Assembly: GCA_051880395.1 (NCBI GenBank)
Contig: JBJENW010000108.1
Span: 3,677 to 67,676 of the forward strand
Length of the DNA: 64,000 nt
Reading direction: 5' to 3'
From: Lachnospiraceae bacterium
Lineage (GTDB): Bacteria; Bacillota; Clostridia; Lachnospirales; Lachnospiraceae
Made by a program: the position numbers and the translations under genes. Shown piece by piece: positions 1,164 to 28,700 of this stretch. The notes under the pieces were generated by a model. That model was not told where the DNA came from. It searched no databases and worked only from the letters and a program-made list of their open reading frames with translations. Numbering within the stretch: position 1 is the stretch's first letter; every line of letters starts with the position of its first letter.

Positions 1164-2651
1164 CTATTTGTCTTGCGGAATTCGCCCATATAATTTTGTA
1201 TTTTTTCGAATTTTTTTCGCTAGTTTTTCTGTAAAATCTGATTCTTTTGCACGCCACATCCAGTTTTTTCCGAGTGTAGACGGCTCATTCATCCGTGCTT
1301 CACTGCCAAGTCCGATCAAATCCTGCATCGTCACGATCGCTGTATCTGCTACACTTGCCCAGGCAGCTTTCATCATGCCCCAATGATACCCCTCTTTTTT
1401 TGTTAAACGCAGATATTTTTTCGCAAATTTTACGGATGCTTTCGGTGCGGTTTCAAACCATCCCAAAATCGTATCATTGTCATGCGTTCCGGTGTAAACC
1501 ACGCAATTCACTGGATAGGTATGCGGCTGATAATCATTTTCTTCCCGCGAATCAAATGCAAACTGCAGTACTTTCATGCCGGGATATCCACTTCTTTTTA
1601 GCATTTTTCGAACAGAATCCGTCAAAAATCCGAGATCTTCGGCAATTAACGGCAATTTTCCCATTTTTTTCTCCATCGTCTGAAACAACTTGATTCCAGG
1701 TCCCTTTCGCCACTCCCCATTTTTCGCCGTTTCATCTCCATACGGAATTGCATAGTACGACTCAAATCCGCGAAAATGATCGATTCGTATCACATCAAAC
1801 AACCGTCGCATAGCCTCAACCCGTTTACACCACCAGGCGAAATCCTCTTTTTTCATGACATTCCAACGAAATAGCGGATTTCCCCACAACTGACCGTCCT
1901 CGCTGAACGCATCCGGCGGGCACCCCGCCACCTCGATGGGTTGTAAATTCTCATCCAGATAAAACTGCTTTGGATTCGCCCAAACATCCGCACTGTCTAA
2001 CGCCACATAAATCGGCATATCTCCGATCAGCTGAATGCCGTTTTCATTTGCATAGAGCTTTAGATCGCTCCACTGTTCAAAGAAAAAGAACTGTAGCATC
2101 TTGTAGAATTCAATTTCTTCACGATAGGTGCTCTTTGCTTTTTCCAACGCTTTCGGCTCACGCATTTTCCATTCATCTGGCCATTCCTGCCAAGAGACAC
2201 CGTTTTGCGATTCTTTCAATGCCATAAACAATGCATAATCTTCCAGCCAGTCTTTTTCTTTCTCACAAAATTTTGCATATTTCGGCAGTTCGTTTTGGAA
2301 GAGCCGTTTCTGCGCTTTTTTCAACAGAGGATACCGTTTCTGATAGAGCATTGCATAATCCACCCTTGTTTCTTCTTTTCCCCAGTTAACTGCTTCGCAC
2401 TCTTTCTTTTTCAGATATCCTTCTTTACAAAGGATATCAAGATCGATAAAATATGGATTCCCCGCAAACGCCGAAAACGACTGATATGGGGAATCTCCGT
2501 AACTGGTCGGACCTACCGGCAGCATCTGCCAATACGTCTGCCCGCTTTTTTTTAAAAAATCAACAAATTGATATGCCGTTTCTCCCAGCGTGCCGATTCC
2601 ATACGGAGACGGCAGGGAAGAAACGTGCATCAAAATTCCGCTCGCACGCAT
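1164..2651 (-). CDS. malQ: 4-alpha-glucanotransferase (amylomaltase, GH77)
   Basis: Motifs GILMHVSSLPSPYGIGTLG, YWQMLPVGPT and GDSPYQS are present. I moved the start to the internal ATG (MRASGILMH), which is preceded by GAGGG. The longer ORF start is less likely. Confidence 0.88.
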   Translation of the reverse strand: MRASGILMHVSSLPSPYGIGTLGETAYQFVDFLKKSGQTYWQMLPVGPTSYGDSPYQSFSAFAGNPYFIDLDILCKEGYLKKKECEAVNWGKEETRVDYAMLYQKRYPLLKKAQKRLFQNELPKYAKFCEKEKDWLEDYALFMALKESQNGVSWQEWPDEWKMREPKALEKAKSTYREEIEFYKMLQFFFFEQWSDLKLYANENGIQLIGDMPIYVALDSADVWANPKQFYLDENLQPIEVAGCPPDAFSEDGQLWGNPLFRWNVMKKEDFAWWCKRVEAMRRLFDVIRIDHFRGFESYYAIPYGDETAKNGEWRKGPGIKLFQTMEKKMGKLPLIAEDLGFLTDSVRKMLKRSGYPGMKVLQFAFDSREENDYQPHTYPVNCVVYTGTHDNDTILGWFETAPKASVKFAKKYLRLTKKEGYHWGMMKAAWASVADTAIVTMQDLIGLGSEARMNEPSTLGKNWMWRAKESDFTEKLAKKIRKNTKLYGRIPQDK

Positions 2652-2847
2652 TCGAATCCCTCTTTTCTTTTTTCTTTTTATTATACCGTATCTTGTCACA
2701 CTATGGCAGATTTTTTTCATCGTTTGACAGTTATTCTAAAACATTTGCGCAAAAAAGCTCGTTTTTTGTCTACATTCCAAGCAGATTCTATGATACACTT
2801 GTAATACGATATGAGAAATGTAGAACGAAGAAAGGAATTAAGAACGT

Positions 2848-4110
2848 ATGAAAGAAGAAACACGCCATCATCTCCGGCATGATCTGCGCCGGCTTATCGT
2901 TTCAATTAAATGGATTATTTATGCCGTTTTTTCCGGTGTAATTGTTGGTTTAGTCGGCACTTTATTTTTTTATTGTATGTCAGCCGCTACCGAACTGCGG
3001 AAAGAAAATCCCTGGCTGATTCTAATGCTTCCGGGCGCTGGTATTTTGATTGTCAGTATTTACAAAGTATTACACGATGAAAAAAGTACTGGCACAAATC
3101 TGGTATTATCTGCCATTCATTCCGGTGAAAATCTGCCGCTTCGAATGGCTCCCTCCATTTTCATTTCCACTGTGATCACGCATTTATTCGGAGGTTCCGC
3201 AGGTCGGGAAGGCGCTGCGCTTCAGCTAGGCGGCAGTATCGGCGCCGCACTCGGAAAGTGGTTTAAGTTCGACCAAAAGGATCAGCACGTCATGATCATG
3301 TGTGGGATGAGCGCTGCCTTTTCTGCACTGTTTGGCACTCCTATGGCCGCTGCTATTTTTTCTATGGAAGTTGTCAGCGTAGGGATTATGTATTATGTTG
3401 CACTGGTTCCCTGTGTCATTTCCGCTCTGGTCGCACATGCTGTAGCCTCAACCTTTCACATTATCCCAGAGATGTTTCCTCTAAAAAATCTGCCTCCGTT
3501 TTCTATCACAAATGCAATCCGTATTTCCTTTCTTGCGATTGCCTGTGCCGGTGTCAGTATTATATTTTGTATTCTTTTACATACCGTCACGGACCTATAT
3601 CACAAGTTTTTTGAAGATTCCTATCTTCGCATTTTTGTAGGCGGCTGTCTCGTTTTAATGCTGACGTTTCTCGTCGGCTCACAAGATTACAACGGTGCCG
3701 GCATGGAGATCATTGCTTCTAGTGTTGCGAAGGAACAGGCACATCCTCTGGCATTTTTATTAAAAATAATTTTTACAGCTCTGACCCTTGGTGCCGGATA
3801 TAAAGGCGGTGAAATCGTACCTTCCTTTTTTGTCGGCGCCACATTCGGCTGTGTTTTCGGAAAACTGATCGGATTATCTCCAGCCTTGTGTGCCGCCGTC
3901 GGTATGAGTTCCGTCTTCTGTGGTGTGACAAACTGCCCGATCACCTCCCTCTTGATCAGTTTTGAACTGTTTGGATATTCCGAAATGCCATTTTTCCTTC
4001 TCTCCATTGCACTGAGCTACATGCTTTCCGGCTATTACGGATTATATGCTTCCCAAAAGATCATATATTCCAAATACAAAACCGAATACATTAACCGAAA
4101 AACACATTAA
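2848..4110 (+). CDS. CLC-family anion channel/antiporter, short form without CBS domains (possibly CLC-F-like)
   Basis: 420-aa polytopic ORF with GREGAALQLGG (gating Glu motif), GTPMAAAIF and GGEIVPSFFVGA. GTNLVL replaces the canonical GSGIP. Confidence 0.8.
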   Translation: MKEETRHHLRHDLRRLIVSIKWIIYAVFSGVIVGLVGTLFFYCMSAATELRKENPWLILMLPGAGILIVSIYKVLHDEKSTGTNLVLSAIHSGENLPLRMAPSIFISTVITHLFGGSAGREGAALQLGGSIGAALGKWFKFDQKDQHVMIMCGMSAAFSALFGTPMAAAIFSMEVVSVGIMYYVALVPCVISALVAHAVASTFHIIPEMFPLKNLPPFSITNAIRISFLAIACAGVSIIFCILLHTVTDLYHKFFEDSYLRIFVGGCLVLMLTFLVGSQDYNGAGMEIIASSVAKEQAHPLAFLLKIIFTALTLGAGYKGGEIVPSFFVGATFGCVFGKLIGLSPALCAAVGMSSVFCGVTNCPITSLLISFELFGYSEMPFFLLSIALSYMLSGYYGLYASQKIIYSKYKTEYINRKTH

Positions 4111-4137
4111 ATTTCTATTTATACTACTAATTCCCAG

Positions 4138-4490
4138 GCGGACGTTTCCGGGATTTGGACAGACGCAGGTTACGGGACGGCAGCTTTCAGAGGGACCAGA
4201 CAAAAATGCAGTCAAGTTCGCGACGGGCCAATCTGCGATGCTTTATTTTTGCTGTTTTCCGAAGGTCGTACAGTCTGCACAAAGATGTACGCCAGAGCAA
4301 GACTCAAAGTCGGATTCTTTCTCTGGCGTACACCTTTGCACAGCCAGTCCGCCAATCGGCAAAACAGCAAAGGCATCGCAGATTGGCCCGTCGGAACTTA
4401 CTAGCATTTCTGTCAAGGTCCCTCTGAAAGCTGCCGTCCCGTAACCTGCGTCTGTCCAAATCCCGGAAACTGTGTATCGGAACCGAGAGG
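4138..4490. repeat. long hairpin-forming intergenic repeat, copy A
   Basis: The element starts with GCGGACGTTTCCGGGA and ends with TCCCGGAAACTGTGTATCGGAACCGAGAGG. The arm GGACAGACGCAGGTTACGGGACGGCAGCTTTCAGAGGGACC pairs perfectly with its reverse complement about 250 nt downstream. The core is shared with copies B and C. Confidence 0.85.
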
Positions 4491-4766
4491 TTATATTTTT
4501 TGAAAATGAAAAGTATAAATCTTACATGCAGAATATCGTTTCGATCACTTTTCATATACTGACAGATCTCAGCCGCATAACCGCAGGATTTATCTGTATA
4601 AAAAATATGCGAGACCTTATGCAGTTCGTAAAATTTGTGATGAATTTTGAATACATTACGTTTTCTTAAGAAACATATTTTAATCTTTTGCAACTGATTA
4701 TTGGAAACGAGAGGTTAAAATCTGTTTCGTTTGCACCAGAAAGTTGTGGCCATAGAAAATTCACTG

Positions 4767-5122
4767 TCTTTCGGTTCCAATACACAGTTTCCGGGATTCG
4801 GCGGGGAGATTCGCACTGGGGATGGCTGGTTCAAAAGTGGCTTTGACAGAAATGTTAGTGAGCTCGGGCGGGTAAAATTGCGATGCCTTTGCTGTCTTGC
4901 CGTAAGGCGGAAAGGCTGTGCGGATTTGTACGCCAGAGAAAGAATCCGCTTTTGAGTCTTACTCTGGCGTACAAATCCGTGCAGACTGTCCGACATACGG
5001 AAGACAGCAAAAATAAAGCATCGCAATTTTGCCCGTCCGAACTCGACTTCATTTCTGTCTAGCCACTTTTGAACCAGCCATCCCCAGTGCAAATCTCCCC
5101 GCCGAATCCCGGAAACGTCCGC
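4767..5122. repeat. long hairpin-forming intergenic repeat, copy B (inverted relative to A)
   Basis: The element starts with CTTTCGGTTCCAATACACAGTTTCCGGGA and ends with TCCCGGAAACGTCCGC. Its outer stem CGGCGGGGAGATTCGCACTGGGGATGGCTGGTTCAAAAGTGGC is self-complementary but unrelated in sequence to the stem of A. Confidence 0.85.
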
Positions 5123-5161
5123 ATAGAAACTAATAGGACAAACAGAAAGTTTGTGTTCAAT

Positions 5162-5202
5162 AAGAAAACCCCCCGCAAGCGGGTAAACCCGCTTGCAGGG
5201 GG
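5162..5202 (-). terminator. intrinsic terminator of the rnf operon
   Basis: A GC-rich hairpin CCCCCGCAAGCGGGT/ACCCGCTTGCAGGGGG is followed on the minus strand by TTTTCTT, 20 nt after the rnfB stop. Confidence 0.8.
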
Positions 5203-5222
5203 TATAAAAAGAAACACTCTGC

Positions 5223-6014
5223 TTATAAAATGATCTTTTTCGGACATTTTTCTGCGCAGACACCACATCCGGTACATTTGTCCTGATCGATGTAAGCCAC
5301 ATTGTCCACGACATGAACCGCATCGTGCTCACAGTTCTTTTCGCACAAATGACAGCCAATACAACCAACGGAACATGCTTTCATGACGTCTTTACCCTTG
5401 TCCTTCGAACTGCACTGTACCGCATGTTTTGCATCATATGGTACTAATTCGATCAAACCTTTTGGACAGGTTGCCACACATTTTCCGCAGGCTTTACAAG
5501 CCTCTTTGTCCACTTTTGCGATACCATCCACGATATGAATGGCATCAAACGGGCACGCTTTCACGCAGCTTCCCATTCCTAAACAGCCATAATTACAGGA
5601 TTTCGGACCACCGTTTGGCACAAATGCCATTGCAGAACACTCTTCCACTCCGGTATATGCATAGTCCTGGTTTGCTTTCTCGCAGTTTCCGGCACATTTT
5701 ACAAATGCAACCATCCGTTTGCTCTCACCGGCAGATACGCCCATGATCTCGCCAACTTTTTCTCCGACAGCAGCGCCACCGACCGGACACTGATTGACTG
5801 GCGCTTCGCCTTTCACGATTGCAGCAGCCAGACCGGAACATCCGGCATATCCGCAACCACCACAGTTATTTCCCGGGAGTACCTCTAATATTGCTTCTTC
5901 TCTCGGATCCACTTCTACTTTTAATTTTTCTCCGGCAATACCAAGGAAAAATCCGATCAGTATGCCTGTGCCACCTACGATGACGGCGGCAATGATAATA
6001 CTTGTAATATCCAT
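5223..6014 (-). CDS. rnfB: Rnf electron-transport complex subunit B (polyferredoxin)
   Basis: N-terminal TM helix, a CGGCGYAGC motif and several CxxCxxCxxxCP 4Fe-4S motifs. It is the last gene of the rnfCDGEAB order. Confidence 0.9.
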   Translation of the reverse strand: MDITSIIIAAVIVGGTGILIGFFLGIAGEKLKVEVDPREEAILEVLPGNNCGGCGYAGCSGLAAAIVKGEAPVNQCPVGGAAVGEKVGEIMGVSAGESKRMVAFVKCAGNCEKANQDYAYTGVEECSAMAFVPNGGPKSCNYGCLGMGSCVKACPFDAIHIVDGIAKVDKEACKACGKCVATCPKGLIELVPYDAKHAVQCSSKDKGKDVMKACSVGCIGCHLCEKNCEHDAVHVVDNVAYIDQDKCTGCGVCAEKCPKKIIL

Positions 6015-6026
6015 CTGCCTGCCCTC

Positions 6027-6602
6027 CTAAATGACGCCTGAGAATCCGAAAAATGCAATCGCCATCAAACCTGCTGTTACAAGCACGATCGGTGAACCTT
6101 TGAATGCACCCGGTACGTCGTTGTATTCAATCTTCTCTCTGATACCTGCCATAATGACAATCGCGATGGTAAAGCCGACTGCTGTCGCAAATCCGTTTAC
6201 CACGCTCTGTAAAATGTTATAATTTTTTGTCACATTCTTTAACGCAACACCAAGTACTGCACAGTTTGTCGTGATCAGCGGAAGATACACTCCCAAAGAC
6301 TGATACAGTGCCGGCATTGACTTTTTCAAAAACATTTCCACAAACTGCACCAATGCTGCAATAACCAAGATAAAGACGATGGTCTGCAGATATTCAAAGC
6401 CCGACGGTGCCAAAATAAATTTGTAAATCAATCCCGTTACAAAGGAGGACAATGTGATAACGAAAACAATCGCTCCTCCCATACCTGCCGCCGTCTCTAC
6501 TTTCTTAGAAACACCAAGAAACGGACATAAGCCTAAAAACTGGCTCAAAACGACATTATTTACAATAGCGGAACTTACTAAAATAATCAGTAATTCTTTC
6601 AT
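6027..6602 (-). CDS. rnfA: Rnf complex subunit A
   Basis: 191-aa polytopic protein with an RnfA/NqrE-like sequence (LGLCPFLGVS) in the expected operon position. Confidence 0.9.
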   Translation of the reverse strand: MKELLIILVSSAIVNNVVLSQFLGLCPFLGVSKKVETAAGMGGAIVFVITLSSFVTGLIYKFILAPSGFEYLQTIVFILVIAALVQFVEMFLKKSMPALYQSLGVYLPLITTNCAVLGVALKNVTKNYNILQSVVNGFATAVGFTIAIVIMAGIREKIEYNDVPGAFKGSPIVLVTAGLMAIAFFGFSGVI

Positions 6603-6616
6603 CTTGTCTCATCCCC

Positions 6617-7372
6617 CTATTCTTTCTTCGCAGCTTCTGTAGCTGCCGGTGCTTTTTCAGATGTGGAAACACGTCCTGTACACATGCTGTTCCCACAACT
6701 TAAGCAGTCTCCAGCCAGGCATCCTTGTGCTGCTGCCATCGGTTTGCCCTTTTTCTCTGCATTCTTTTTGATCTGATTCATAATTGCAACCAAAAAACCT
6801 AATACAAAGAACGCACCAGGTGCCAATACAAAAATCGTGATCGGTGTATATCCAGCTTTTCCAGTTGCTGCATCCGCTAATGGTAAAAGTTGGAATCCGA
6901 AAATCTGTCCGGCACCTAAAATCTCACGAACAATACCAATACAGGTCAGACCAAATGTAAATCCAAGTCCCATACCAATACCATCAAAGATAGATGGAAT
7001 TACCGGATTCTTAGACGCATAACTTTCTGCACGACCTAAGATGATACAGTTAACAACGATCAATGGAATATAAATACCCAGTGATGCATACAAAGCTGGC
7101 ACAAAACCCTGTACCAAGAACTGTACAATTGTTACAAACGATGCCACAATAACGATAAATGCCGGCATACGAACTCTATCCGGAATCACTTTCCGGAGCA
7201 TGGAAATGATCATATTCGACATAACCAAAACAACGGTTGTAGAAAGCCCCATACCAAGGCCGTTGATGGCAGAGGTTGTGACTGCCAGTGTCGGACACAT
7301 ACCAAGCATCAGCACAAAGGTAGGATTTTCTTTAATAAGACCGTTGTATAATCTCTCTACACATTTATTCAT
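6617..7372 (-). CDS. rnfE: Rnf complex subunit E, with a Cys-rich C-terminal tail
   Basis: MNKCVERLYNGLIKENPTFVLMLGMCPTLAV is RnfE/NqrD-like. I placed the start at the internal ATG directly after the rnfG stop. The extra C-terminal tail reads GCLAGDCLSCGNSMC. Confidence 0.88.
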   Translation of the reverse strand: MNKCVERLYNGLIKENPTFVLMLGMCPTLAVTTSAINGLGMGLSTTVVLVMSNMIISMLRKVIPDRVRMPAFIVIVASFVTIVQFLVQGFVPALYASLGIYIPLIVVNCIILGRAESYASKNPVIPSIFDGIGMGLGFTFGLTCIGIVREILGAGQIFGFQLLPLADAATGKAGYTPITIFVLAPGAFFVLGFLVAIMNQIKKNAEKKGKPMAAAQGCLAGDCLSCGNSMCTGRVSTSEKAPAATEAAKKE

Positions 7373-10575: not shown

Positions 10576-10776
10576 CTCTCAAAGCTCTTTATCCTTGATT
10601 TTGAGAGTTCATACATAATGTTTTCTCGGAATCTCTTTGTGCTTGATTTTGTGAGATGATTTTTTGTCAGATGTGCACAAATTTATGAGGCGTACGTGGA
10701 GCGTACGTTGATTAAATTTGTGTGCATCTGACGGAAAATCATCCGCAAAAGCGGGCGCAAGGGAGATTCCGAGAGA
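10576..10776 (+). promoter_or_regulatory. structured 5' leader: a small hairpin (10576-10607) plus a ~154-nt hairpin (10623-10776)
   Basis: I paired arms 10623-10696 and 10702-10776 by hand. The result is about 70 paired positions, about 13 of them G.U on the plus strand and none A.C. The hairpin ends 25 nt before the ATG at 10802. Confidence 0.55.
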
Positions 10777-10801
10777 ACATCAAAAAAGGAGGAGGCTTTT
10801 T

Positions 10802-11947
10802 ATGCAAATCTGGCAAACAGAAACAAAATTGACAACGAAAGATTTGGAATATCTCACTTTTTTCCCAGAAAATGCGACTTTTTTTGACATCGAAACCACT
10901 GGTTTTTCTGCCGGACATGCCATCTGTTATCTGATCGGATGCGCATCCCGAAAAGAAAATCGTCTATTGATCACGCAGTTTTTTGCGGATCAGATAATTG
11001 ATGAGCAGAATGTTTTAGAAGCATTTCTGGCATATATCGCTGATTTCCAAATATTGATCTCTTTTAATGGAACCGGATTTGATCTCCCGTTTTTACAAAA
11101 ACGCTGTGAAATGCTATCGCTCCCGGTGGATTTTACAAATTTCCAGCAGACGGATATTTTTAAAGAAGTATCCGCGCTCAAAGAAGTCTTTTGTCTTCCA
11201 AATTACAAACAAAAAGCCATTGAAGCATTTCTTGGAATCATGCGCGAAGATCAATATAACGGCGGAGAACTGATCAACCAATATTTTTCCTATGAGAAAA
11301 CACAAGATTCCAAACTGCTTTCCCTTTTAAAACTGCACAATTACGAGGATGTTCTTGGAATGACCAAGCTGCTTCCCATTTTTTCTTATATTTCCTTTTT
11401 TCAGGGGAATTTTCACATTGCATCGCTTGAAAAGAACACGTTTACGGATTATGCAGGCGAGAAAAAGGAAGAAATGCTGTTTTCACTCACCTGTGATCTG
11501 ACCTTTCCAAAACGCCTCACCTGTCGTAAAGATGGAATTCATATGGTTTTTTCCAAAAATATTGTACAATTCTCTGTCCCAATTTATTCAGGAGAATTGA
11601 AATTTTTCTATCAGAATTACAAAGACTACTATTATCTTCCAAAGGAAGATATGGCCATTCACAAGAGTGTTGCGTTTTATGTCGATAAAAATTATCGAAC
11701 ACAAGCGAAGGCTGCCACTTGCTACAGCAAAAAGACCGGTTGTTTTTTGCCACAGTTTGATGACGTGATCTCGCCCTATTTTAAACTTGAATATAATGAC
11801 ACACACTCTTATTTTGAATGCACGCGTGAATTCTATGAATCGGATGACGATGTCAAACGCTATTGCATGCATATTCTCCATCATTTTCTCGAAAAAAAGA
11901 AGCAATCAAAAACCTCAAAAAAGACAAAAAAGCCGATTGTCGGATAA
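10802..11947 (+). CDS. RNase H-like / DnaQ-type 3'-5' exonuclease domain protein (YprB-like)
   Basis: FFDIETTGFS (ExoI DxE motif) lies near the N-terminus. I set the start at MQIWQTE, behind the AAGGAGGAGG RBS. The longer ORF start lies inside the leader hairpin. Confidence 0.6.
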   Translation: MQIWQTETKLTTKDLEYLTFFPENATFFDIETTGFSAGHAICYLIGCASRKENRLLITQFFADQIIDEQNVLEAFLAYIADFQILISFNGTGFDLPFLQKRCEMLSLPVDFTNFQQTDIFKEVSALKEVFCLPNYKQKAIEAFLGIMREDQYNGGELINQYFSYEKTQDSKLLSLLKLHNYEDVLGMTKLLPIFSYISFFQGNFHIASLEKNTFTDYAGEKKEEMLFSLTCDLTFPKRLTCRKDGIHMVFSKNIVQFSVPIYSGELKFFYQNYKDYYYLPKEDMAIHKSVAFYVDKNYRTQAKAATCYSKKTGCFLPQFDDVISPYFKLEYNDTHSYFECTREFYESDDDVKRYCMHILHHFLEKKKQSKTSKKTKKPIVG

Positions 11948-21607: not shown

Positions 21608-21749
21608 TTATCCATCCATCCTTCTTATTTCAAAAATTTTTCTACTATGTAAAACTACACCATCTCATTATACGCGATAAAATCGCTCCCTGTCAATCAC
21701 ATTTCCCGGATTCCTCTAAAAATATCTCAACCATCGTTGGTATCCCCAC

Positions 21750-21947
21750 GCGGACGTTTCGCAACACGCCGGGCATCTCTGCGAAAAACACGGCTCCTGT
21801 TCAGGTAAGCTAACTCTTAAGATTCTCTAAGACACTCAGGATCGCCTTCGTGCCTAAGAGAATCTAAAGAGTGGATCTCACCTGCACCCGCCGAAACGTT
21901 TTTTCGCAGAGATGCCCGGCGTGTTGCGAAACTGTGTACTGGAAACG
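21750..21947. repeat. hairpin repeat, copy D (same ends as A, different interior)
   Basis: Ends GCGGACGTTTC...GAAACTGTGTACTGGAAACG. The 33-bp outer stem GTTTCGCAACACGCCGGGCATCTCTGCGAAAAA pairs perfectly with TTTTTCGCAGAGATGCCCGGCGTGTTGCGAAAC. Confidence 0.8.
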
Positions 21948-21975
21948 GAAAAGATCTCAACCAATCGGTTTCATT

Positions 21976-22062
21976 ACACAGTTTTCGGTATCCGGCAGGA
22001 GGCAAGGACCGGAAACTGTGTATTGGAAACGCTAGGTTGAAATATCTTAACCTCCCGTTTCC
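21976..22062. repeat. minimal copies of the same repeat ends (two short hairpins)
   Basis: First hairpin: ACACAGTTTTCGGT...ACCGGAAACTGTGTATTGGAAACG. Second hairpin: GGAAACGCTAGGTT...AACCTCCCGTTTCC. Confidence 0.6.
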
Positions 22063-22066
22063 GATA

Positions 22067-22402
22067 GACAGTTTCCGAAATTTGGCTGGGTGGGCAAGGC
22101 GGGGCGGCTGCTTTCAGAAGGGCTTTGACAGAAATGTTAGTGAGTTTGGGTGGACAAATCTGCGATGCCTTTGCTGTTTTGCCGAGAGGCGTACAAGCTG
22201 TGCGTAGGTGTATGCGGGAGAAAGAGTCCGCTTCTGAGTCTTTCTCCCACATACACCTGCGTGCAGCTTGTACGACATTCGGAAAACTGCAAAAATAAAG
22301 CATCGCAGATTTGCCCGCCCAAACTCGACTTCATTTCTGTCTAGCCCTTCTGAAAGCAGCCGCCCCGCCTTGCCCATCCAGCCAAATTTCGGAAACGTCC
22401 GC
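22067..22402. repeat. long hairpin-forming intergenic repeat, copy C (same orientation and core as B)
   Basis: GACAGTTTCCGAAATTTGGCTGGGTGGGCAAGGCGGGGCGGCTGCTTTCAGAAGGGC pairs with its complement and ends GGAAACGTCCGC. The core TTTGACAGAAATGTTAGTGAG...TGCGATGCCTTTGCTGT is shared with B. Confidence 0.85.
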
Positions 22403-22413
22403 ATAGAAAACAC

Positions 22414-23613
22414 TCAAATCCCCTGACAAAGCTGATTCATGGATAATACGATTCCCATGATGTCGGCCGAACATTTTTCCATGTTTTGGGACAGATAATT
22501 CACTTGAGAACGTGCTTTTTGAATCAAGGACTGGTTATAGTCCAAATGCTCCTGCAATTTATGCTGACGGTTGATGAGATTCTGCCGCTCTTTTTCTATC
22601 TCTTCGTCATCTAACAAAATATCGATCTGATCAAACCACAGTTTCTCATCTGTCAGATTCAACTCATGTAAAATCCTGCTTAATTTTTCCTCATAATATT
22701 CTAAATCATCGCTGGTTTCCATATACTTTTTACGCTGTTTCACACTGTCCATATACTGTTCCCATTCGTAAAGCAGCTCCTGACCACTTTTTACATGATA
22801 TTTTGCACAGGCATAATCAACCGCATTTGTTACATTCACATACTTCACTTTCATCTTATTTTCGCGCTCAATCGCATAATTCCGGTTGACGTTGATTTTA
22901 TGCAGTTCGGTAATATTGTACTGACGTTTCATAAAAATGCCAAATGTTAACATTGCGACAACAAAGATCAGAAGGAAAAATGCATTTTCACAATGCAGAC
23001 GAAATCCCTCCTTCAAAACAAATAGAAGCACGATCCCTACTCCACAGACACCACACAGACAATACAATAATTGCTGCAGCGTGGTCTGTTCTTCTGTCAG
23101 CTGTTCTTGTCGTATTGCCAACTGCTCTTTTTCGCTCGACAAATATTGCATATCTCGTTTCACGGCTGCCTGATATTTCTCGTTTGCCTGTAGGCGACGA
23201 ATCTCATCCGGCATTTCCTCTTCCTTCTGCTGCATCTGAAGAAAAATCGCATCTTCCATCCGATGGCCTGCTTTTCGGTAATTTTCTCTTGCATTTGTCA
23301 GTTTGCGCACATTTTGAACCGTCTCTTTGAGTTCCGCACTTTTTTCTTCCGGAAGTGCTTTCAGCTTTTCAATATCAGCCAGATAATCGCAAACCTCATG
23401 ATATTCTTTTCGACCTTCCTCTAACTCTTTTGTATTTTCCATGATCGTTTCACACTGAGAAACGATATAGTGTTCAATTTCCTCTCGATTACTTTTCGGT
23501 TTTGACACCCGCTCCACTGGCGGTAATTCCGGTTCTTCCTCCTCGCCAACCGAATATTGCTGAATCGGCTTTGACTGCTTTTCATTCTTTTTTTTCCAAT
23601 GAAACCACTTCAT
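22414..23613 (-). CDS. coiled-coil membrane protein, unknown function (4th gene of orphan operon)
   Basis: 399 aa. It has a charged, heptad-like N-terminal half, two hydrophobic helices (LLYCLCGVCGVGIVLLFVL and FFLLIFVVAMLTFGIFM) and a second coiled-coil-like half. A GGGGGAG RBS precedes it. Confidence 0.6.
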   Translation of the reverse strand: MKWFHWKKKNEKQSKPIQQYSVGEEEEPELPPVERVSKPKSNREEIEHYIVSQCETIMENTKELEEGRKEYHEVCDYLADIEKLKALPEEKSAELKETVQNVRKLTNARENYRKAGHRMEDAIFLQMQQKEEEMPDEIRRLQANEKYQAAVKRDMQYLSSEKEQLAIRQEQLTEEQTTLQQLLYCLCGVCGVGIVLLFVLKEGFRLHCENAFFLLIFVVAMLTFGIFMKRQYNITELHKINVNRNYAIERENKMKVKYVNVTNAVDYACAKYHVKSGQELLYEWEQYMDSVKQRKKYMETSDDLEYYEEKLSRILHELNLTDEKLWFDQIDILLDDEEIEKERQNLINRQHKLQEHLDYNQSLIQKARSQVNYLSQNMEKCSADIMGIVLSMNQLCQGI

Positions 23614-23637
23614 AAAAACTCCCCCTTATTTTCTTCA

Positions 23638-24462
23638 TCAGAAGACACATTTTTGCATATATTCATTTTTCCAGGCCGCCATGATCGTGTCCGCCTGTTC
23701 ATAAAACGCATTGATCTCTCCTTTTTCACGCAGTTCATACAACTGCTGCATCTGTGCATCTTCGACTAGTTGTTCCCTACTATTCTGATCCTTCAAAAAC
23801 GCTTCGATCTGATCCGAGGCATACTTTGCTTCTTCCATAAGACTTCGTGTCTTTTCTTCCCCATATGCCAAAAAACAGGATGCCCAGTACTCCTGCCCGA
23901 TCTGACTTGTATCTTGATAAGTGGAAGCCATTTCAAAACAATGCATCGCATCCTCAAATAAAAATATTCCGGCATAAGCAGTGCCGAGATTATTCCAAAC
24001 CTGACTTTGAAACACTGGTTTTTCCTCTTTTGTTTCAGAAAGCAGCAGTATTTTCCGATATTCCTGAATGGCAGCCACATATAAGTGTTTTTTTAGCATA
24101 CGGTCCGCACGCATTTTTTTTCGTTCTACCGGATTTTTCTTTTGAAACTCCTCAATCGTACTACATATCATAGAAATTTCCGAAGGTGTATGATATCCGC
24201 TCGCCTGTAAAAGACTTTCCATAAACAGCGCCACGTTTTTTCTTCGCCAATACAATTCCATTCGCTGCGCCAGGGAAGGCATTGCCAGCTCTTTTGTCAC
24301 CCATTCCAGAAATGACTGCCGCATAAAGGACGGCTGCGCCAGATCAATATTTTCCTGAATAAAATAGCTGATCTCCTCCAGGTTATAAAGATGCAATGAC
24401 AGTTCTTCTAACTCATACGGTGTTTGTGCCTGATTACGCCGGCATAAAATCACACTGCTCAT
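23638..24462 (-). CDS. helical / TPR-like protein, unknown function (3rd gene)
   Basis: 274 aa. The segment WNNLGTAYAGIFLFEDAMHCFEMAS is TPR-like. A strong AAGGGGGG RBS precedes it, with a 17-nt gap to the upstream gene. Confidence 0.55.
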   Translation of the reverse strand: MSSVILCRRNQAQTPYELEELSLHLYNLEEISYFIQENIDLAQPSFMRQSFLEWVTKELAMPSLAQRMELYWRRKNVALFMESLLQASGYHTPSEISMICSTIEEFQKKNPVERKKMRADRMLKKHLYVAAIQEYRKILLLSETKEEKPVFQSQVWNNLGTAYAGIFLFEDAMHCFEMASTYQDTSQIGQEYWASCFLAYGEEKTRSLMEEAKYASDQIEAFLKDQNSREQLVEDAQMQQLYELREKGEINAFYEQADTIMAAWKNEYMQKCVF

Positions 24463-24479
24463 TTCACATTCCCCCCTTT

Positions 24480-25712
24480 TTATAAACGAATCACATATTC
24501 CCAGGTTTGCCCGGTTGCAGCAAAAAATTCTCCGAATCCCTGATCTGTTAAAGACACCTTCACTTCCCGATCAGAAAGAGGTTCTGCTTTCACATGGAGC
24601 CGCGTCGTCCTTGGAGGCCGTTCGGGGAGTTCCGTTAACTGCAATGTCTGAATCTGTGCATTTCGACTTTGTGGCAATTGCAGATAAAAATCAATTGCTG
24701 ATGATTTATCAAGGATAATATCACATTCCCCTTTTGTCTCATACCAGTTTTCGCCGGCTGAGATCAGCGTAAACATACCATCCCCCTGTGCCCCCCGCAC
24801 TTTCATACTGACATTGACCTTCATCTCATTTTCGCCCATGTAGACAAACGGCCATTGCTGATTTGAATCCCGAATTGCTGCAAAATAACAGGCTCCTATG
24901 GAAAACAGATTTTTTCCCATAAAGGCTTTTCGATTCTTACACAAAATCTGCAGTGATTGCCGCATCCATCCTCCTTCAAACAAATCTCCTGTCAGATAGA
25001 CTGCTGAAACGATTCGCCCGGAAAGCTGTTGATTTGCCATTTCTGCAAATGCAGAATCTTTTTGTTCCCCAAGCGCTCCGAGTTTTTCTTCCGTAACCGT
25101 CACAAGCTGTGGACTGGTTTTCTGACTTCGTTCCAGACACCATGCAAAGATTTGATTCTCTTTTTCCCGAAACATCAAAACATCATGCAGCCACAGTTCC
25201 CGCTTCTGATTCAGCGTATATACATAAAAACTTTCTTTATAATTTTGAATATGCCAGTTTGCTGAGGAGATTCCTGCTTTTTTCAACGCCCATCCCAGTT
25301 TGCGCACCAGTTCTTTATTGACTTCCTCCATTGTAAGAACCAGCCGATCTACGCGAAACGGTGTTCCATTTTTTTCCGGAAGTGCCAGAACTTTCCGAAA
25401 AAACAACGCCAGAAGTTCAAACGCTTCGTAGCTTTCTTTGTCCCAGACGATTTTTTCTTCAGACATTGTTTTTTGTATTAAGTGATCTGCAAAACAAGGT
25501 TCGTTGAGCTGCATCTGCTTTTTTGCTTCATCCCCGTATAACCAATAGCTGGAATTTTTCTTATGTCCGATCACCAGAGGGATCTGATAGACATTTCTTC
25601 CTGCGACAGCACTCACCGTTTCCGGTTTTTCACTGTCTGCACGCATGAAACTGAGCATCACGCTTGTGTCACTGATATCCATGCCCGCATAACATCTTAT
25701 ACCTTCTATCAT
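24480..25712 (-). CDS. Hsp70/actin-fold ATPase-like protein without a substrate-binding domain (2nd gene)
   Basis: 410 aa. GMDISDTSVMLSF resembles Hsp70 phosphate-1 (GIDLGTTNS). RLVLTMEEVNKELVRKLGWALKKAGIS resembles the VITVPAYF...AG segment. VYLTGDLFEGGWMRQSL resembles the VLLVGGxTRxP adenosine motif. These are weak motif-level matches only. Confidence 0.5.
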   Translation of the reverse strand: MIEGIRCYAGMDISDTSVMLSFMRADSEKPETVSAVAGRNVYQIPLVIGHKKNSSYWLYGDEAKKQMQLNEPCFADHLIQKTMSEEKIVWDKESYEAFELLALFFRKVLALPEKNGTPFRVDRLVLTMEEVNKELVRKLGWALKKAGISSANWHIQNYKESFYVYTLNQKRELWLHDVLMFREKENQIFAWCLERSQKTSPQLVTVTEEKLGALGEQKDSAFAEMANQQLSGRIVSAVYLTGDLFEGGWMRQSLQILCKNRKAFMGKNLFSIGACYFAAIRDSNQQWPFVYMGENEMKVNVSMKVRGAQGDGMFTLISAGENWYETKGECDIILDKSSAIDFYLQLPQSRNAQIQTLQLTELPERPPRTTRLHVKAEPLSDREVKVSLTDQGFGEFFAATGQTWEYVIRL

Positions 25713-25729
25713 ATACTTCTCCCCCTTTT

Positions 25730-28700
25730 CTACAATATCAGGAACTGGTTGTTCACATTTTTCTCTCGACTTTTGTATTTTTCCATCAGACCAAGCATTG
25801 TTTCACTGTCTTCGAGTGCTCTCGATACTGCCATTCCGTTTAAAAGATCATATCGACTGTCATCATTTTCATTATAACCATCCGCATTCTGAATCACATT
25901 GCTTCCAGTAATATCCCATATACCATCGATTTTTTCCTGTACATAGTATTGAATTTTTTCCCCAAAGAACAACACAAAACTTTTGACATAAATCCCTTCA
26001 TACATTTCCTGCATTCGCTCTTTCTTGAAATCAACTTGCAGATCATATTCGGGTTGATAGCAGAGCATCACTTCTTTTCCCGGATCTGTGCGATACTCAA
26101 TAAATATTTTATCATAAAGATAAAATTCCTGCTGAATTTCATGAGGAAACTGTTTATAAAAACGGAAATACAAACCTTTCTGTATGCATTGTCCCAACAA
26201 GTCTTCGACAATTTCGCGTTCCGCCTGTGACAGACTCTGCTTCTGCGACAGCCATTGCAGTAATGCCAGCTCTCCCATTTGATTGATTGTATGTTCCTGA
26301 TACTGATGTAATAATTCTTCAAAAACAGACTCCGAAACAACCATCTTTTTCACAAAACTGCAATATGAATAGTAAGAAACATATGCTGCACAGATTTCAC
26401 TGCGACCACCGCTTTTGCAATAACTCTCATAAATCTCATCCGTATTTTCCACAAATACCGCCGTGGAAAGCATCTGAACCAGGAGACGTTCTTCCAGCTC
26501 TGCGGTATCCACCAGGAAATTCTTCGCCGTGCGAAAGAGTGCCGCCATTTTTGCGGTCGGTCCCTCATAATATTTGACCAGATAGTTCAGCAAAACATCA
26601 TTATATTTTCCTGCACGATACGCCGCCTCACTCAGATACAGTAGATTTTTTTCCCACTCATATGCGTGCTCTATGATCAAATAACTGCACAAAGAAAGAA
26701 GTCGTCCACTCTGCAATTGATCTACACTTCCACACGGAATCTGTTCGTATGCAGCTTCATACTCATGCAGTTCCACTAAAATCTCCACTGCCATCCTGTG
26801 TGCATCTCCATCGAGCAGTGAAAGATTTTCCTTTTTCAGATAAGGTGCTACCCGCTCAAAATCCCCCGCCTCATAACAATACCGAACTAACTCACAAATA
26901 AGCGTTTTTCGATATTCTTCGCGGATTTCTTTTGCTTTGATCAGATGCATCAGTAAATCCATTTTATCATTTTGCATCGCTTTTTCGACCGGACTACTCG
27001 AAAAATAATGCAGCAGATACGGAATCTTTTCCGGTGCCCATGAAATACATTTGCGTATATAATGTGATGGATGCATCAGTTTTTCCAGCTCGCAATCCTC
27101 TAAACCTGTCAAAAGATTTCCATATATATCTTCTAAAAGGATCACATAATTCGCAGAATAAACCTGCACATAAGCGATATGATTTACAAGTGGTACAACC
27201 TGCACTTTTTTCCACTCCTGCTGCGCTACTATGACGTAACGAATATCTGGTCGTTTGCAGACAAACTGACAAGTATAAAACAGTTCCGATAATTTCTTTG
27301 TAATTTCCGGATTAACCATTCCCGCTTCTAAAGCAGTATCATAAATCAGTGCCAGATTTGCATCCATATGATGTTGTTCCATCTGGCGCAATGCAAAATC
27401 TTCTATATTCTGCATATAATGTTCCAGCACATCCGGCTGCCTGTTACGATTTTTAATGATATTTACATACAATATCGCTTTTCGCGCTACCGGAAGCGTA
27501 TTTGTATTATATTGGAAATAAATCTGCACCTCTTTCGGCAATGGGTCCGTTCGCTGACTATCAATGGAAAGCAGATAGGATTCATATAGATTCGTGATAC
27601 GAAAATCTTTTTCGATTCCCATCGCATACCAATGCTGATACTGTACTCCGTATTTCGAAAAGCGAGTCAGATAACGGCAGATTATCTCTGCTAACTCCTC
27701 TGTCTGATATTGTTCATAACAACCGCACAAAATCTGATAGTTTTTTTCATCAAACGAACGCTCCATGGACAGTAATTTCAAAAAACGCTCCATCATCGCA
27801 TGTGTGAGCCCCTTTCTCTGAAGCCCCCACAATAAAATCCGTTTCTCATATGTTCCCAGTTTTTTCATCAGATTCGGTTCTTCCTGATAAAGATAAAATG
27901 CCTCCATATAGAAAAATGGACTGGCATGTCCGCTGCAAATGTGTTTTTCCAGTGCCTGTTGGCGTACCTTGTGATCGGTGAAATAATCTTCTCGTAAAAA
28001 CAAGAGCACCCAGAATAAAATCTCCGGTTTTCCTCTCTTTTGATAGATGACCTCTATCTCTTCTGTAAGCTTATTTACATAAGATGCTTCTCGCTCTATC
28101 AATGTCAAAAGATACAGATAATACGCCCATTCTGTCGTATCTGTCTCTTTAAAATGTTCGCGCTTAAATGCATCTAAAATCCATTCTGCTTCCTGTCGCT
28201 GTTTATTCAAAAGATACGCCTGTGCTTTCATCAAGCGATAAATATCCTGTTTTGTCAATCGAAACAATTGATCTAATAATTCATTTGACTTCTGACACCA
28301 TTCTCCCGTCACGATTTTCTGAAATCGATAATCCATATACAGTTTTGTTAATTCTGCCTGATATTTTTGTTTTTCCCAAATCAGCTTTTTCTGTTGAGGA
28401 TGTCGACTCGTCTGCTCCACCAAAAGTTCCACCTGCTCAATTTGATTCGTTCCTGCAATCGTAATGCGAATGAAATTTTTTCCATGATGCAGCTTTTGGG
28501 GATCGATCACATAAGGAATCTGCAGTACATCTCCCACAAAATCCTCTGTTTCAAACAATTGTTTACTAAAACAGATTCCCGCAGAATCTGCAGTGACCGA
28601 AAGACTGAGATACCCCCAGCTGTCTTTTTCAACCTGTAAAAGCTCCTGACTCGGTTCCTTGATATCTTGAAAATTACGCGTAGAATCCAATACACGAAAT

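Follow-up and report, generated by a model that had tools for sequence, protein, structure and literature searches.

The CLC/rnfB locus

The window analyzed here is a stretch of 64,000 nucleotides (64 kb) on one contig of a Lachnospiraceae MAG. A CLC channel gene (2848-4110, + strand) and an RnfB gene (5223-6014, − strand) converge on an intergenic region in this window, as stated in the first-pass annotation, which had been made from the sequence without database searches. Between the two genes lie two modules, copy A (4138-4490, + strand) and copy B (4767-5122, − strand), each of which contains an interrupted helix of approximately 138 bp. The coordinates of all features are listed in Table 1.

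The annotation had described each copy as one long imperfect palindrome, and the predicted folds bear this out. The minimum free energy as RNA was −255 kcal/mol for copy A and −264 kcal/mol for copy B, each sequence forming one hairpin, as compared to −111 ± 6 kcal/mol for shuffled controls (z = −25 and −26, respectively). The outer stem is indeed paired within its own copy, with 54-nt arms in copy A (4144-4197 and 4417-4470) that are 100% complementary and 56-nt arms in copy B (4787-4842 and 5061-5116) that are 98% complementary. The complementarity of the inner arms of the two copies is 76-96%.

Both copies carry the two mutually different ends that had been reported. The sequence GCGGACGTTTCCGGGA was located as an exact match at position 4138 on the + strand and at 5107-5122 on the − strand (0.03 matches expected by chance), and TCCCGGAAACTGTGTATYGGAA at 4461 (+) and 4775 (−) (0.00 expected by chance). 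The L end, GCGGAC, has an exact match in the copies A, B, C and D and is kept in nine of the 10 aligned copies. Copy A on the + strand aligns with copy B on the − strand with a mean column identity of 86%, in line with the inverted orientation proposed for the pair; the core, which had been called conserved, is 83% identical between A and B, as compared to 48% for the variable part of the outer stem. The asymmetric bulge said to occur in every copy was recovered as GCGATGCTTTATTTTTGCTG versus CAGCAAAGGCATCGC in copies A, B and C, and its TTATT is unpaired and invariant in 10 of 10 aligned copies. The columns of the apical loop (171-177) are mostly conserved among the aligned copies.

The solo end motif noted earlier in the 276-bp segment between the modules was found at 4692-4717, with 85% identity to the right end of copy A. 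The region 4690-4750 shows 78-84% identity in BLAST searches to the R+beta region of L013, L014, L015 and L016, and these matches suggest that the solo R motif with its beta-type end is probably what remains of a module that has been lost. The 276-bp segment is a decayed form of the composite spacer described below. Outside the modules, the arms 4104-4158 and 5102-5156 are 78% complementary, and the left flank of copy A (4104-4137) gives a weak alignment to the L-flank conserved among the metagenome copies.

Table 1. Features of the repeat family at the two loci of the 64-kb window.
Feature	Position	Strand	Remarks
Decayed left flank of copy A	4104-4137	+	Inverted copy of B flank 5123-5156
L end motif GCGGAC of copy A	4138-4143	+	Unpaired at hairpin foot
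Copy A hairpin	4144-4470	+	~138 bp interrupted helix; closing pairs GTTTCC/GGAAAC
Bulge TTATT (5 nt), L-side arm of copy A	4243-4247	+	Alignment columns 108-112
Apical loop AAAGTCG (7 nt) of copy A	4306-4312	+	Gap between inverted-repeat arms
R end motif GAAACTGTGTATCGGAACCGAGAGGTTA of copy A	4466-4493	+	
AT-rich inter-module spacer	4494-4689	.	Homology to metagenome-composite spacers undetectable
Solo R motif + beta-type spacer end (GCAACTGATTATTGGAAACGAGAGGTTAAAATCTGTTTCG...)	4690-4750	+	Identity to R+beta regions elsewhere
Copy B module	4767-5122	−	R end 4768-4796, hairpin 4787-5116, L end 5117-5122
Decayed left flank of copy B	5123-5156	−	Inverted-repeat counterpart of A flank
"ext" motif AAAAATATCTCAAC + linker upstream of the L end of D	21718-21749	+	Conserved outer flank of the family
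Copy D, short-type module	21750-21947	+	Hairpin 21756-21932; L/R ends shared, interior different
Solo R motif R2 + ext extension	21949-21987	−	Inverted repeats
Solo R motif R3 + ext extension	22008-22048	+	Inverted repeat with R end of C
Copy C module	22051-22402	−	R end 22056-22080, hairpin 22071-22396, L end 22397-22402

A second locus and dispersed copies

The pair is not isolated. A second locus of the same window, 21718-22402, had been overlooked in the first-pass annotation. This locus contains a long copy, C, a shorter hairpin, D, with the same ends, and two solo end motifs. Copy C shares 90% identity with the metagenome copies F and Q. The homolog of D, copy J (L015:238-435), shows compensated stem changes. 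The solo motif R3 forms a palindrome in perfect register with the R end of copy C. In total, the window holds three long modules, one short module and three solo R ends (4690, 21966 and 22012) at two unrelated loci. A CRISPR array was dismissed, the R motifs being alternating in orientation and irregularly spaced.

One reading frame is open or nearly open in the copies (0-2 stops per copy), and the spurious ORF calls to which this gives rise were used to locate further copies. At least 13 more copies were found on other contigs of the same MAG, where 13 spurious "hypothetical protein" ORFs overlie modules on 13 contigs; seven of these ORFs are "partial" and located at contig ends. The long modules of the MAG number 16 or more and are spread over 14 or more contigs. 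Relatives were also identified on seven short gut-metagenome contigs from other assemblies, with different gene contexts. The genes beside the loci vary and include CLC/rnfB, thrC, dnaN and others. A protein-coding function was rejected, since the variable columns are spread equally over the three codon positions (56, 63 and 58) and indels shift the frames.

No Rfam family was assigned to the modules in the search that the annotation had recommended. Scanning the whole window at the gathering score gave no match, a scan of 3500-6000 at E ≤ 1 gave only a chance match to AdoCbl-II inside rnfB, and the same threshold applied to L012-L018 gave only sub-threshold matches to eukaryotic miRNA precursors, which fall on both strands and reflect the generic hairpin shape. 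Membership in any Rfam 15 family was discarded on the basis that the gathering threshold was not reached in the window. In exact scans, GAAACTGTGTAYYGGAAMCG had one chance match among the GTDB species representatives (Terracidiphilus), seven matches among JGI/ENA metagenome contigs, all in unrelated coding sequence, and none in IMG/VR; such an exact pattern would miss about half of the known family members, so that these absences are not absolute. Also in IMG/VR, the bulge 18-mer and the core 20-mer had no matches and the flank 18-mer had five chance matches. A blastn search in distant mode with 4100-5160 against phage and plasmid records yielded no match. The nearest homolog of the CLC protein is 77% identical and is encoded in a different gene context, in which the motif is absent; the comparison yielded no empty site.

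A domain check of all large ORFs in the 64-kb window found no transposase or recombinase, as the annotation had observed for the neighborhood of the pair, and genes for an HUH enzyme, intI, RAYT or an IS200-like element were likewise absent from the window. No direct repeat indicative of a target-site duplication was recognizable at the window loci, where the boundaries are decayed; the metagenome contigs show one composite end at most. The family is an undescribed, unusually large, multi-copy palindromic repeat.

Module and composite architecture

Each module consists of the L end (GCGGAC), the helix of approximately 138 bp closed by GTTTCC...GGAAAC, with its invariant 5-nt bulge on the L-side arm and its 7-nt apical loop, and the R end (TGTGTATYGGAAACG-N2-AGGTTGAGATATTTTT). 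Modules measure 200-350 nt and composites 0.65-1.2 kb. At all six metagenome loci with two modules, these are arranged tail-to-tail, with their R ends toward each other and, in between, a spacer that has homologous ends. The module flanks are imperfect inverted repeats (AAAAATATCTCAAC ... GTTGAGATATTTTT), and in the better-preserved metagenome copies the module pairs are flanked by inverted outer arms of approximately 135 nt, conserved up to TTTACGCTTTATATG, which gives a nested palindrome of approximately 1.2 kb. The fold of the entire L013 sequence comprises a closing stem and three hairpins. The modules are parts of a nested-palindrome composite, seen again at each locus with both modules and larger as a unit than the pair first described.

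Several states of decay were observed: R ends occur alone, one arm has been replaced in modules I and P, and the outer arms are absent from the window copies. In L013 and L018, which are likely orthologous, the modules are 95% identical and the intervening spacer 80%. In copy K, both ends are of the R type. The bulge lies on the L-side arm in nine of nine aligned copies with differing ends, and the idea that the core is inverted with respect to the ends was rejected on this basis.

Covariation and divergence of the stems

The outer stems had been described as unrelated between copies, which does not hold across the family: A and the metagenome copy H are 74% identical in this part, and C and copy Q 81%. 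These graded identities show the outer stems to be fast-diverging homologs. The idea that the variable stem is a guide or spacer was dropped for the same reason, as it predicts acquired foreign sequence.

Among the 10 intact copies, 58 of 138 base pairs show compensated double changes and 97.2% of the alignment cells are paired. None of 500 shuffles reached the observed values, and slid registers gave only 2-16 such pairs. When copies are compared two by two, the number of one-sided differences is 3-14, while the compensated changes climb from 0-2 to 23-36 with divergence. The double changes are often of the transversion type, with up to four pair types per position and few wobble intermediates. 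Strict Watson-Crick pairs make up 94.8% of the lettered cells, and G.U pairs 2.4% of the cells. Stem columns diverge at about the same rate as unpaired columns. The variation of the stems does not extend to the bulge, the apical loop or the asymmetric ends, which are kept constant. Loops and bulges that are conserved while the stems covary are also what classically marks a functional RNA, an observation that speaks against a DNA repeat.

These data support the conclusion that the pairing is actively maintained and that the A/B pair is no trivial duplication. The first-pass annotation had gone further and taken the paired changes as selection on the fold. That step does not follow from covariation alone, since template switching or arm-to-arm conversion can fix both sides at once (PMC8794818). 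As to the nature of the folded molecule, for which RNA and single-stranded or cruciform DNA had both been proposed, the fold itself is kept, but RNA from one strand is disfavored: columns of the G.U type (12) and of the A.C type (14) show no strand bias, albeit in small numbers and from related sequences, and the opposite strands fold within approximately 10 kcal/mol of each other, the reverse strand equally well or slightly better. The evidence leans to DNA rather than one-strand RNA. The 58 compensated pairs, the near-zero wobble and the lack of strand bias favor arm-to-arm correction at the DNA level, and the conservation of the asymmetric bulge indicates that something still tells the two arms apart.

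The only intrinsic terminator detected is that of rnfB itself (5203-5168), located upstream of B. No U-tract follows the helix (TGTGTATTGG on one strand and GTCCGCATAG on the other), and a role of the modules as Rho-independent terminators was rejected because a U-tract directly after the GC-rich stem is missing. Matches in consensus scans for a dedicated promoter or terminator did not exceed the expectation from shuffled sequences and no site was conserved, and this candidate was not retained.

Explanations for the repeat family

With modest confidence, we favor the interpretation that A and B are two modules of a non-coding DNA repeat that is dispersed and nested-palindromic, MITE/REPIN-like and non-autonomous, and carried by an uncultured gut Lachnospiraceae lineage. 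Such an element would multiply as DNA, its hairpin forming in single-stranded DNA, either while the DNA is replicated or in an intermediate of transposition. A putative trans-acting enzyme would read the asymmetric features (L versus R end, bulge and loop), and the same features would tell it which strand it has bound. Complementarity could be kept by restricting propagation to copies that still fold, and also by arm-to-arm copying (template switching or conversion), which would turn a single-arm mutation into a compensated pair. After insertion in 3′ intergenic DNA, the hairpin would be at most a passive barrier to transcription or exonucleases. A near-perfect palindrome of approximately 330 bp with a 7-nt loop is expected to be unstable in double-stranded DNA, and its persistence thus calls for an explanation. 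A bolder and rather doubtful proposal is that the hairpin is the strand-specific substrate of a new ssDNA-enzyme system in the Lachnospiraceae, a "giant REPIN" or an attC-like site. The freely varying, obligatorily paired stem of approximately 140 bp would then act as a spacer rod that presents three fixed single-stranded signatures, namely the L/R foot, the TTATT bulge and the apical loop.

It is unlikely that the modules are instead a structured non-coding RNA family, in which the hairpin would be transcribed, for example as part of a 3′ UTR made by read-through from the gene upstream, and would function as RNA in mRNA 3′-end protection, as a platform for proteins or RNase III, or as a processed small RNA. 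Stems that covary, in combination with a bulge, an apical loop and single-stranded flanks that are invariant, would fit such a function, as would the U.G pair (columns 107/238) next to the bulge, which is invariant in 10 of 10 copies, and the start of copy A 28 nt past the stop codon of the CLC gene, where no other terminator is present. The genes also read the modules from L to R (CLC into A, rnfB into B, and the ORF at 22414-23613 into C), but this rule is a trivial consequence of the symmetric composite. A G.U content of 2.4% is however very low for 138 RNA pairs, and neither the wobble pattern nor the folding energy singles out one strand; the rnfB terminator precedes B, a conserved promoter, a trailing U-tract and an Rfam match were not found, and the copies are mosaic and decaying, as in mobile DNA. 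Rated as quite improbable is the view that the repeats are functionless palindromic junk, with arms kept complementary by template switching or intramolecular gene conversion alone, without selection on the fold and without an enzyme. It would account for the similar divergence of stem and unpaired columns, for compensated changes that roughly track divergence, and for the common transversion-type double changes with few wobble intermediates, and template switching is known to homogenize the arms of inverted repeats and to repair stems in a single event (PMC8794818); a further report documents the homogenization as well (PMC8604942). Arm-to-arm copying should nevertheless erase asymmetry, and yet the bulge is kept in all 10 copies and always on the L side where the ends are unlike, the difference between L and R has likewise been retained, together with several internal mismatches, and both apex types show a conserved apical loop sequence. 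Moreover, at least 16 dispersed copies require a copying mechanism, and the modules of L013 and L018 are more alike than their spacers.

Only a slim chance is given to a recombination site that is used as a folded single strand, like the integron attC or the CTX-phage attP, with a recombinase that would bind the hairpin and select the strand from the extrahelical bases. The combination of a conserved foot, a variable paired stem and symmetry-breaking extrahelical bases follows the attC logic, and the paired GTTTCC/GGAAAC together with a second GGAAAC 8 nt further into R resemble multiple binding sites. Against this, the attC consensus (RYYYAAC/GTTRRRY) is absent, GTTTCC does not fit GTTRRRY, a module of approximately 350 nt is longer than attC, the 64-kb window holds no intI, cassette array or recombinase gene, and the copies occur singly or as inverted pairs in intergenic DNA among housekeeping genes. 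Scarcely credible is an assembly artifact, that is, fold-back chimeras from library preparation or assembly. The MAG and Logan contigs do break at the elements, and seven of the 13 spurious ORFs are truncated at contig ends. But fold-back chimeras are expected to be perfect palindromes of unique sequence, which disfavors this explanation: the family was recovered from different samples and assemblers (MEGAHIT k141, SPAdes NODE, MUNK18 scaffolds and Logan), and the copies share the asymmetric bulge and ends and show graded divergence with compensated changes.

Implications

Even if it is only MITE-like, the repeat extends the short list of such families in gut Firmicutes by a new one of unusual size. 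It accounts for the recurrent contig breaks in such MAGs and the presence of at least 13 spurious "hypothetical proteins" in the MAG annotation, and it provides a clean natural dataset on how pairing is kept up in long stems. A stable, near-perfect chromosomal palindrome of 350 nt also bears on hairpin-processing nucleases such as SbcCD. A protein that reads the arm asymmetry, once found, would reveal a new hairpin-recognizing DNA enzyme. Should the giant-REPIN proposal be true, the family would represent a new class of mobile or recombining DNA, defined by its structure and served by a dedicated protein, rather than a by-product of a known IS.

Comparison with known systems

The attC sites of integrons have a conserved foot, a variable but paired stem and extrahelical bases that distinguish the strands; they act as folded single strands and are 57-141 nt long. 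The modules share this logic of foot, stem and extrahelical bases, but they lack the core-site consensus, are 3-6 times longer, have no integrase or cassettes and are dispersed rather than arrayed. Membership among the integron attC sites was rejected on the basis of the foot (GTTTCC/GGAAAC), the length of approximately 350 nt and the absence of an integrase from the window. The palindrome-associated elements derived from IS200/IS605 (PATEs) likewise differ between their left and right ends, lack classical terminal inverted repeats where they are cleaved and are recognized through hairpins in ssDNA. Their hairpins are subterminal stems of approximately 20 nt, one per end, whereas here one helix spans the whole element, with no TnpA/TnpB gene nearby and no Rfam match of the omega-RNA type. 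The large non-coding RNAs in Rfam (6S, OLE, ROOL, GOLLD, HEARO and others) are of the same size class and have helices supported by covariation, but none is matched at the gathering threshold in the window.

REPIN-RAYT systems have been described mostly from proteobacteria. A REPIN is an inverted doublet with a spacer, for which a hairpin is predicted in ssDNA and of which singlets are decaying remnants, and clusters alternate in orientation (PMC3116915). The inverted-doublet plan matches the tail-to-tail pairs, the solo R ends and the alternating R motifs of the family described here, in which inverted doublets with a spacer and singlet remnants were both found. The difference is in size: REPs are palindromes of 20-40 nt and REPINs measure approximately 100 nt, whereas the unit here is 200-350 nt and each half of a long doublet is a 350-nt hairpin.

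MITEs fold into long stem-loops, and bcr1 is reported to keep its structure through compensatory changes (PMC3184786). The MITEs bcr1 of the Bacillus cereus group, Correia of Neisseria and ERIC/IRU of enterobacteria are likewise non-coding and occur as multiple copies in intergenic DNA; they have imperfect inverted repeats at their boundaries and can fold in their entirety into one stable hairpin. In agreement with a MITE, the family has terminal inverted repeats, is small, non-coding and transposase-free, and occurs as dispersed copies in differing contexts. It departs from bcr1, Correia and ERIC in its asymmetric L and R ends and in the tail-to-tail pairs inside a nested palindrome of approximately 1.2 kb; the MITEs are approximately 105-170 nt in total, and the modules, with a helix of approximately 138 bp, are two to three times larger. 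The family has no known parent IS, and it is set apart from bcr1, Correia and ERIC by their descriptions, not by sequence. The strictly paired mutation of its stems identifies it as a giant relative of MITE/REPIN repeats rather than a cataloged RNA.

Hairpin modules in the window

Copies A and B, described in the first-pass annotation as long imperfect palindromes, each form a single interrupted hairpin, with minimum free energies of -255 and -264 kcal/mol as compared to -111 ± 6 kcal/mol for dinucleotide shuffles (z of about -25). An inverted-repeat search recovered outer arms of 54 nt (100% complementarity) in A and 56 nt (98%) in B, and inner arms with 76–96% complementarity in both. The inverted arrangement with a conserved core was also recovered, as A(+) can be aligned with B(-) at 83% identity in the core and only 48% over the variable stretch of the outer stem. 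The end motifs were located exactly where they had been reported (chance expectation ≤0.03), the asymmetry that forms the internal bulge was found as GCGATGCTTTATTTTTGCTG on one arm vs. CAGCAAAGGCATCGC on the other, and gene annotation placed the locus between the convergent genes for a CLC channel and rnfB. The R end was correctly positioned but too short in the earlier description, the complete motif being GGAAACTGTGTATTGGAAACG-N2-AGGTTGAGATATTTTT. Its distal part, AAAAATATCTCAAC, is present in inverted orientation about 15–20 nt outside the L end in copy D and in the metagenome copies, so that every hairpin is nested in a longer imperfect palindrome. With a terminator of its own located upstream of B, rnfB does not depend on the repeat for termination.

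Motif searches of the window revealed a second locus that had escaped the first-pass annotation, with modules C and D. Insertion of C may have altered the final codons of the adjacent ORF. The L-end hexamer recurs 3' of the apical loop in C and in the metagenome modules E, F and Q, but not in A, B, G, H, K or M of the alignment; it could be an extra single-stranded copy of the recognition motif, or a coincidence.

Features of the window and of the metagenome contigs (L014, L015, L017; positions without a contig name refer to the window)
Feature	Position	Strand	Description
Copy A	4138-4490	+	Outer arms 4144-4197 / 4417-4470
Solo R motif and start of beta	4690-4750		In the A/B spacer
Copy B	4767-5122	-	Outer arms 4787-4842 / 5061-5116
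rnfB intrinsic terminator	5168-5203	-	Strong; 16-bp stem and T-run, between rnfB and copy B
Unrelated inverted repeat	10655-10743		42-nt arms, 79% complementary, 5-nt loop; overlaps start of next ORF
ORF	10718-11947		RNase_H_2 and PolB-exonuclease-like domains
Promoter	21667-21696	-	Perfect sigma-70 consensus, TTGACA-18-TATAAT; upstream of threonine synthase gene, directly beside outer flank of D
Second locus	21718-22402		
Two solo R motifs	within 21718-22402	alternating	Motif search
Copy D	21750-21947	+	Shorter hairpin (~190 nt), unrelated interior; L end GCGGACGTTTC and R end GAAACTGTGTAYTGGAAACG as in the others
Copy C	22051-22402	-	Core family of A/B, third outer stem
Second GCGGAC	22225-22235		In copy C, AAGCGGACTC
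Stop codon of ORF 22414-23613	22403-22416		Inside L flank of copy C, GGGGATTTGA
Four co-directional ORFs	22414-29275	-	
ORF	22414-23613	-	No Pfam match
ORF	23638-24462	-	No Pfam match
ORF	24480-25712	-	DUF5716_C
ORF	25730-29275	-	1181 aa, DUF5717 N+C
RloB-like protein adjoining AAA_21 ATPase	60753-62474	-	
Module I	L014:743-1100		Replaced 3' outer arm, GCCTTTTT.CCCGCAG...CCTGCACGCACGGATA
Module P	L017:500-853		Same replaced arm, different sample
DnaN-domain ORF	L014:1099-1683		194 aa only, DNA_pol3_beta, about half normal length; abutted by module
Module J	L015:238-435		Short type
Module K	L015:622-982		R-type ends on both sides, not L and R

Elsewhere in the window, the unrelated inverted repeat may be regulatory or operator-like, the four co-directional ORFs look like a conserved operon of undefined function, and the RloB-like protein with its ATPase resembles OLD or abortive-infection-type defence genes.

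Dispersal and composite architecture

When GTDB representatives, JGI/ENA metagenomes and IMG/VR were scanned for DNA patterns, only chance matches were obtained; blastn against phages and plasmids gave no match, and the nearest CLC homolog was just 77% identical, with no synteny in its gene neighbourhood. Relatives were recovered by using one nearly open frame over the core as a pseudo-protein, which retrieved spurious ORF calls. At least 13 such ORFs cover repeats, annotated as “hypothetical proteins” on 13 other contigs of the same MAG (ACI4HI_00535, 03185, 03745, 05795, 06685, 08335, 10275, 13545, 14910, 15295, 16280, 16510, 18270), which brings the genome to at least 16 long modules. Seven of the 13 are “partial” at contig ends, indicating that the repeat fragments the assembly. 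Likewise, Logan contigs of run SRR30616823 are identical to window positions 1476-4165 and 5109-6977 and both end within hairpin feet, as expected of a repeat; the MAG may derive from these reads. Short ENA metagenome contigs with such ORFs were also recovered, of which seven were fetched (L012-L018); MUNK18 in some of the sample names presumably refers to the pig and poultry faecal survey of Munk et al. 2018.

All metagenome loci that show both modules have the same order, “ext” motif, L end, hairpin, R end, spacer and inverted second module, with the R ends facing each other across a spacer of 116–300 nt. Alpha and beta, the two ends of the spacer, show homology across loci and are inverted variants of one another, so the spacer itself is able to fold. 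About 135 nt outside the L ends are conserved as far as TTTACGCTTTATATG, past which the flanks are unique. Folded as DNA, the entire 1238 nt of contig L013 adopt a structure of one closing stem and three hairpins (-420 kcal/mol). The window loci are decayed forms of this composite plan: the flanks kept by A and B are mutually similar over only ~34 nt, homology of their 276-bp spacer to the metagenome spacers is limited to a solo R motif and the start of beta, and the spacer of the second locus is nearly all lost. The ends of module K indicate that L and R are interchangeable alleles of one flank position. In modules I and P, the replaced 3' outer arm does not pair with the 5' arm, suggesting either another type of module or a rearrangement junction that both have in common. 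The short DnaN ORF may reflect insertion into or beside dnaN, or a frameshifted contig.

Compensatory evolution of the stems

An alignment of ten long, intact modules (A, B, C, E, F, G, H, K, M, Q) gave a consensus structure of 138 pairs in which 97.2% of the cells are paired and 58 of the 138 pairs have changed on both sides. None of 500 column shuffles matched the observed covariation values, and sliding the 3' partner by 1–3 columns reduced the both-sided pairs to 2–16. Independent variation of the arms, which the first-pass annotation had named as refuting selection on structure, was thus not observed. In pairwise comparisons, copies with 93–97% identity differ by 4–11 one-sided and 0–2 compensated pair changes, as compared to 3–14 and 23–36 in copies with 66–78% identity; the flat one-sided count indicates that single-arm changes are transient. 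The short modules D and J behave in the same compensated manner. The outer stems had been considered unrelated, and identity between A and B is indeed low (48%), but the stems are graded homologs (A-H 74%, C-Q 81%). Stem and core types occur in mosaic combinations; as the inner hairpin is an uninterrupted stretch of DNA, its replacement in one step could yield such mosaics with pairing intact.

Competing explanations

These results show a dispersed, multi-copy, non-coding repeat of nested palindromes with maintained pairing, fixed asymmetric features and variously decayed copies. Variable columns are evenly spread by codon position (56/63/58), with no coding signal. Selection on a folded RNA or on single-stranded or cruciform DNA had been proposed, of which the maintained pairing stands, whereas a role as RNA is unlikely. 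A function as RNA would fit the fixed TTATT bulge, the fixed U.G pair beside it and the fixed apical loop, yet we consider it unlikely. Of 1375 cells, only 33 are G.U, 20 A.C and 19 other mismatches, and wobble-type columns number 12 for G.U vs. 14 for A.C; as A.C on one strand is G.U on the other, the wobble tolerance that a functional RNA should have is seen on neither. For an RNA, strict Watson-Crick pairing of 94.8% across 138 pairs is unusual. In addition, both strands fold about equally well, consensus scans of the modules identified no conserved promoter, no U-tract follows the helix, and rnfB is terminated before B is reached. The repeat is outside known RNA families and probably no RNA gene at all.

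That the palindromes are functionless and merely self-correcting is quite unlikely, because pure arm-to-arm homogenisation would erase asymmetries that have survived: the bulge in 10 of 10 copies, its position on the L-side arm in all nine copies with differing ends, the adjacent U.G pair, the loop and the L/R difference. Something seems to read them. A recombination site of the attC type is very unlikely, and creation of the copies by misassembly is scarcely conceivable. We lean towards a DNA repeat that would propagate as DNA, the folded single strand being the substrate of a putative trans-acting enzyme, with pairing upheld by selection at propagation and by template switching or conversion, a route to paired stems described in PMC8794818 and PMC8604942. 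Once inserted, the repeat would do no more than passively obstruct transcription or exonucleases.

Comparison with known systems

The repeat lacks the defining features of attC sites, Rfam families, intrinsic terminators and CRISPR arrays. In the way it works, the repeat is closest to REPINs and to MITEs forming long stem-loops. Compensatory changes are present in bcr1 (PMC3184786), while REPINs consist of inverted doublets with a spacer, of which singlets decay (PMC3116915). As in MITEs, the repeat is non-coding, is bounded by inverted ends and occurs in multiple copies at scattered sites. At the inferred boundaries of the two window loci, which are decayed, no direct repeat indicative of a target-site duplication could be recognised, and none of the metagenome contigs covers both ends of a composite. 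The unit size differs from that of REPINs, and no RAYT gene is present in the 64-kb window. The original observation is genuine and richer than first noted: size, architecture, extreme covariation almost without wobble intermediates and a conserved strand-marking bulge are unusual, and point to a putative hairpin-reading enzyme. The type of repeat is familiar in principle, whereas its very large, nested and asymmetric-ended palindromic form is new.
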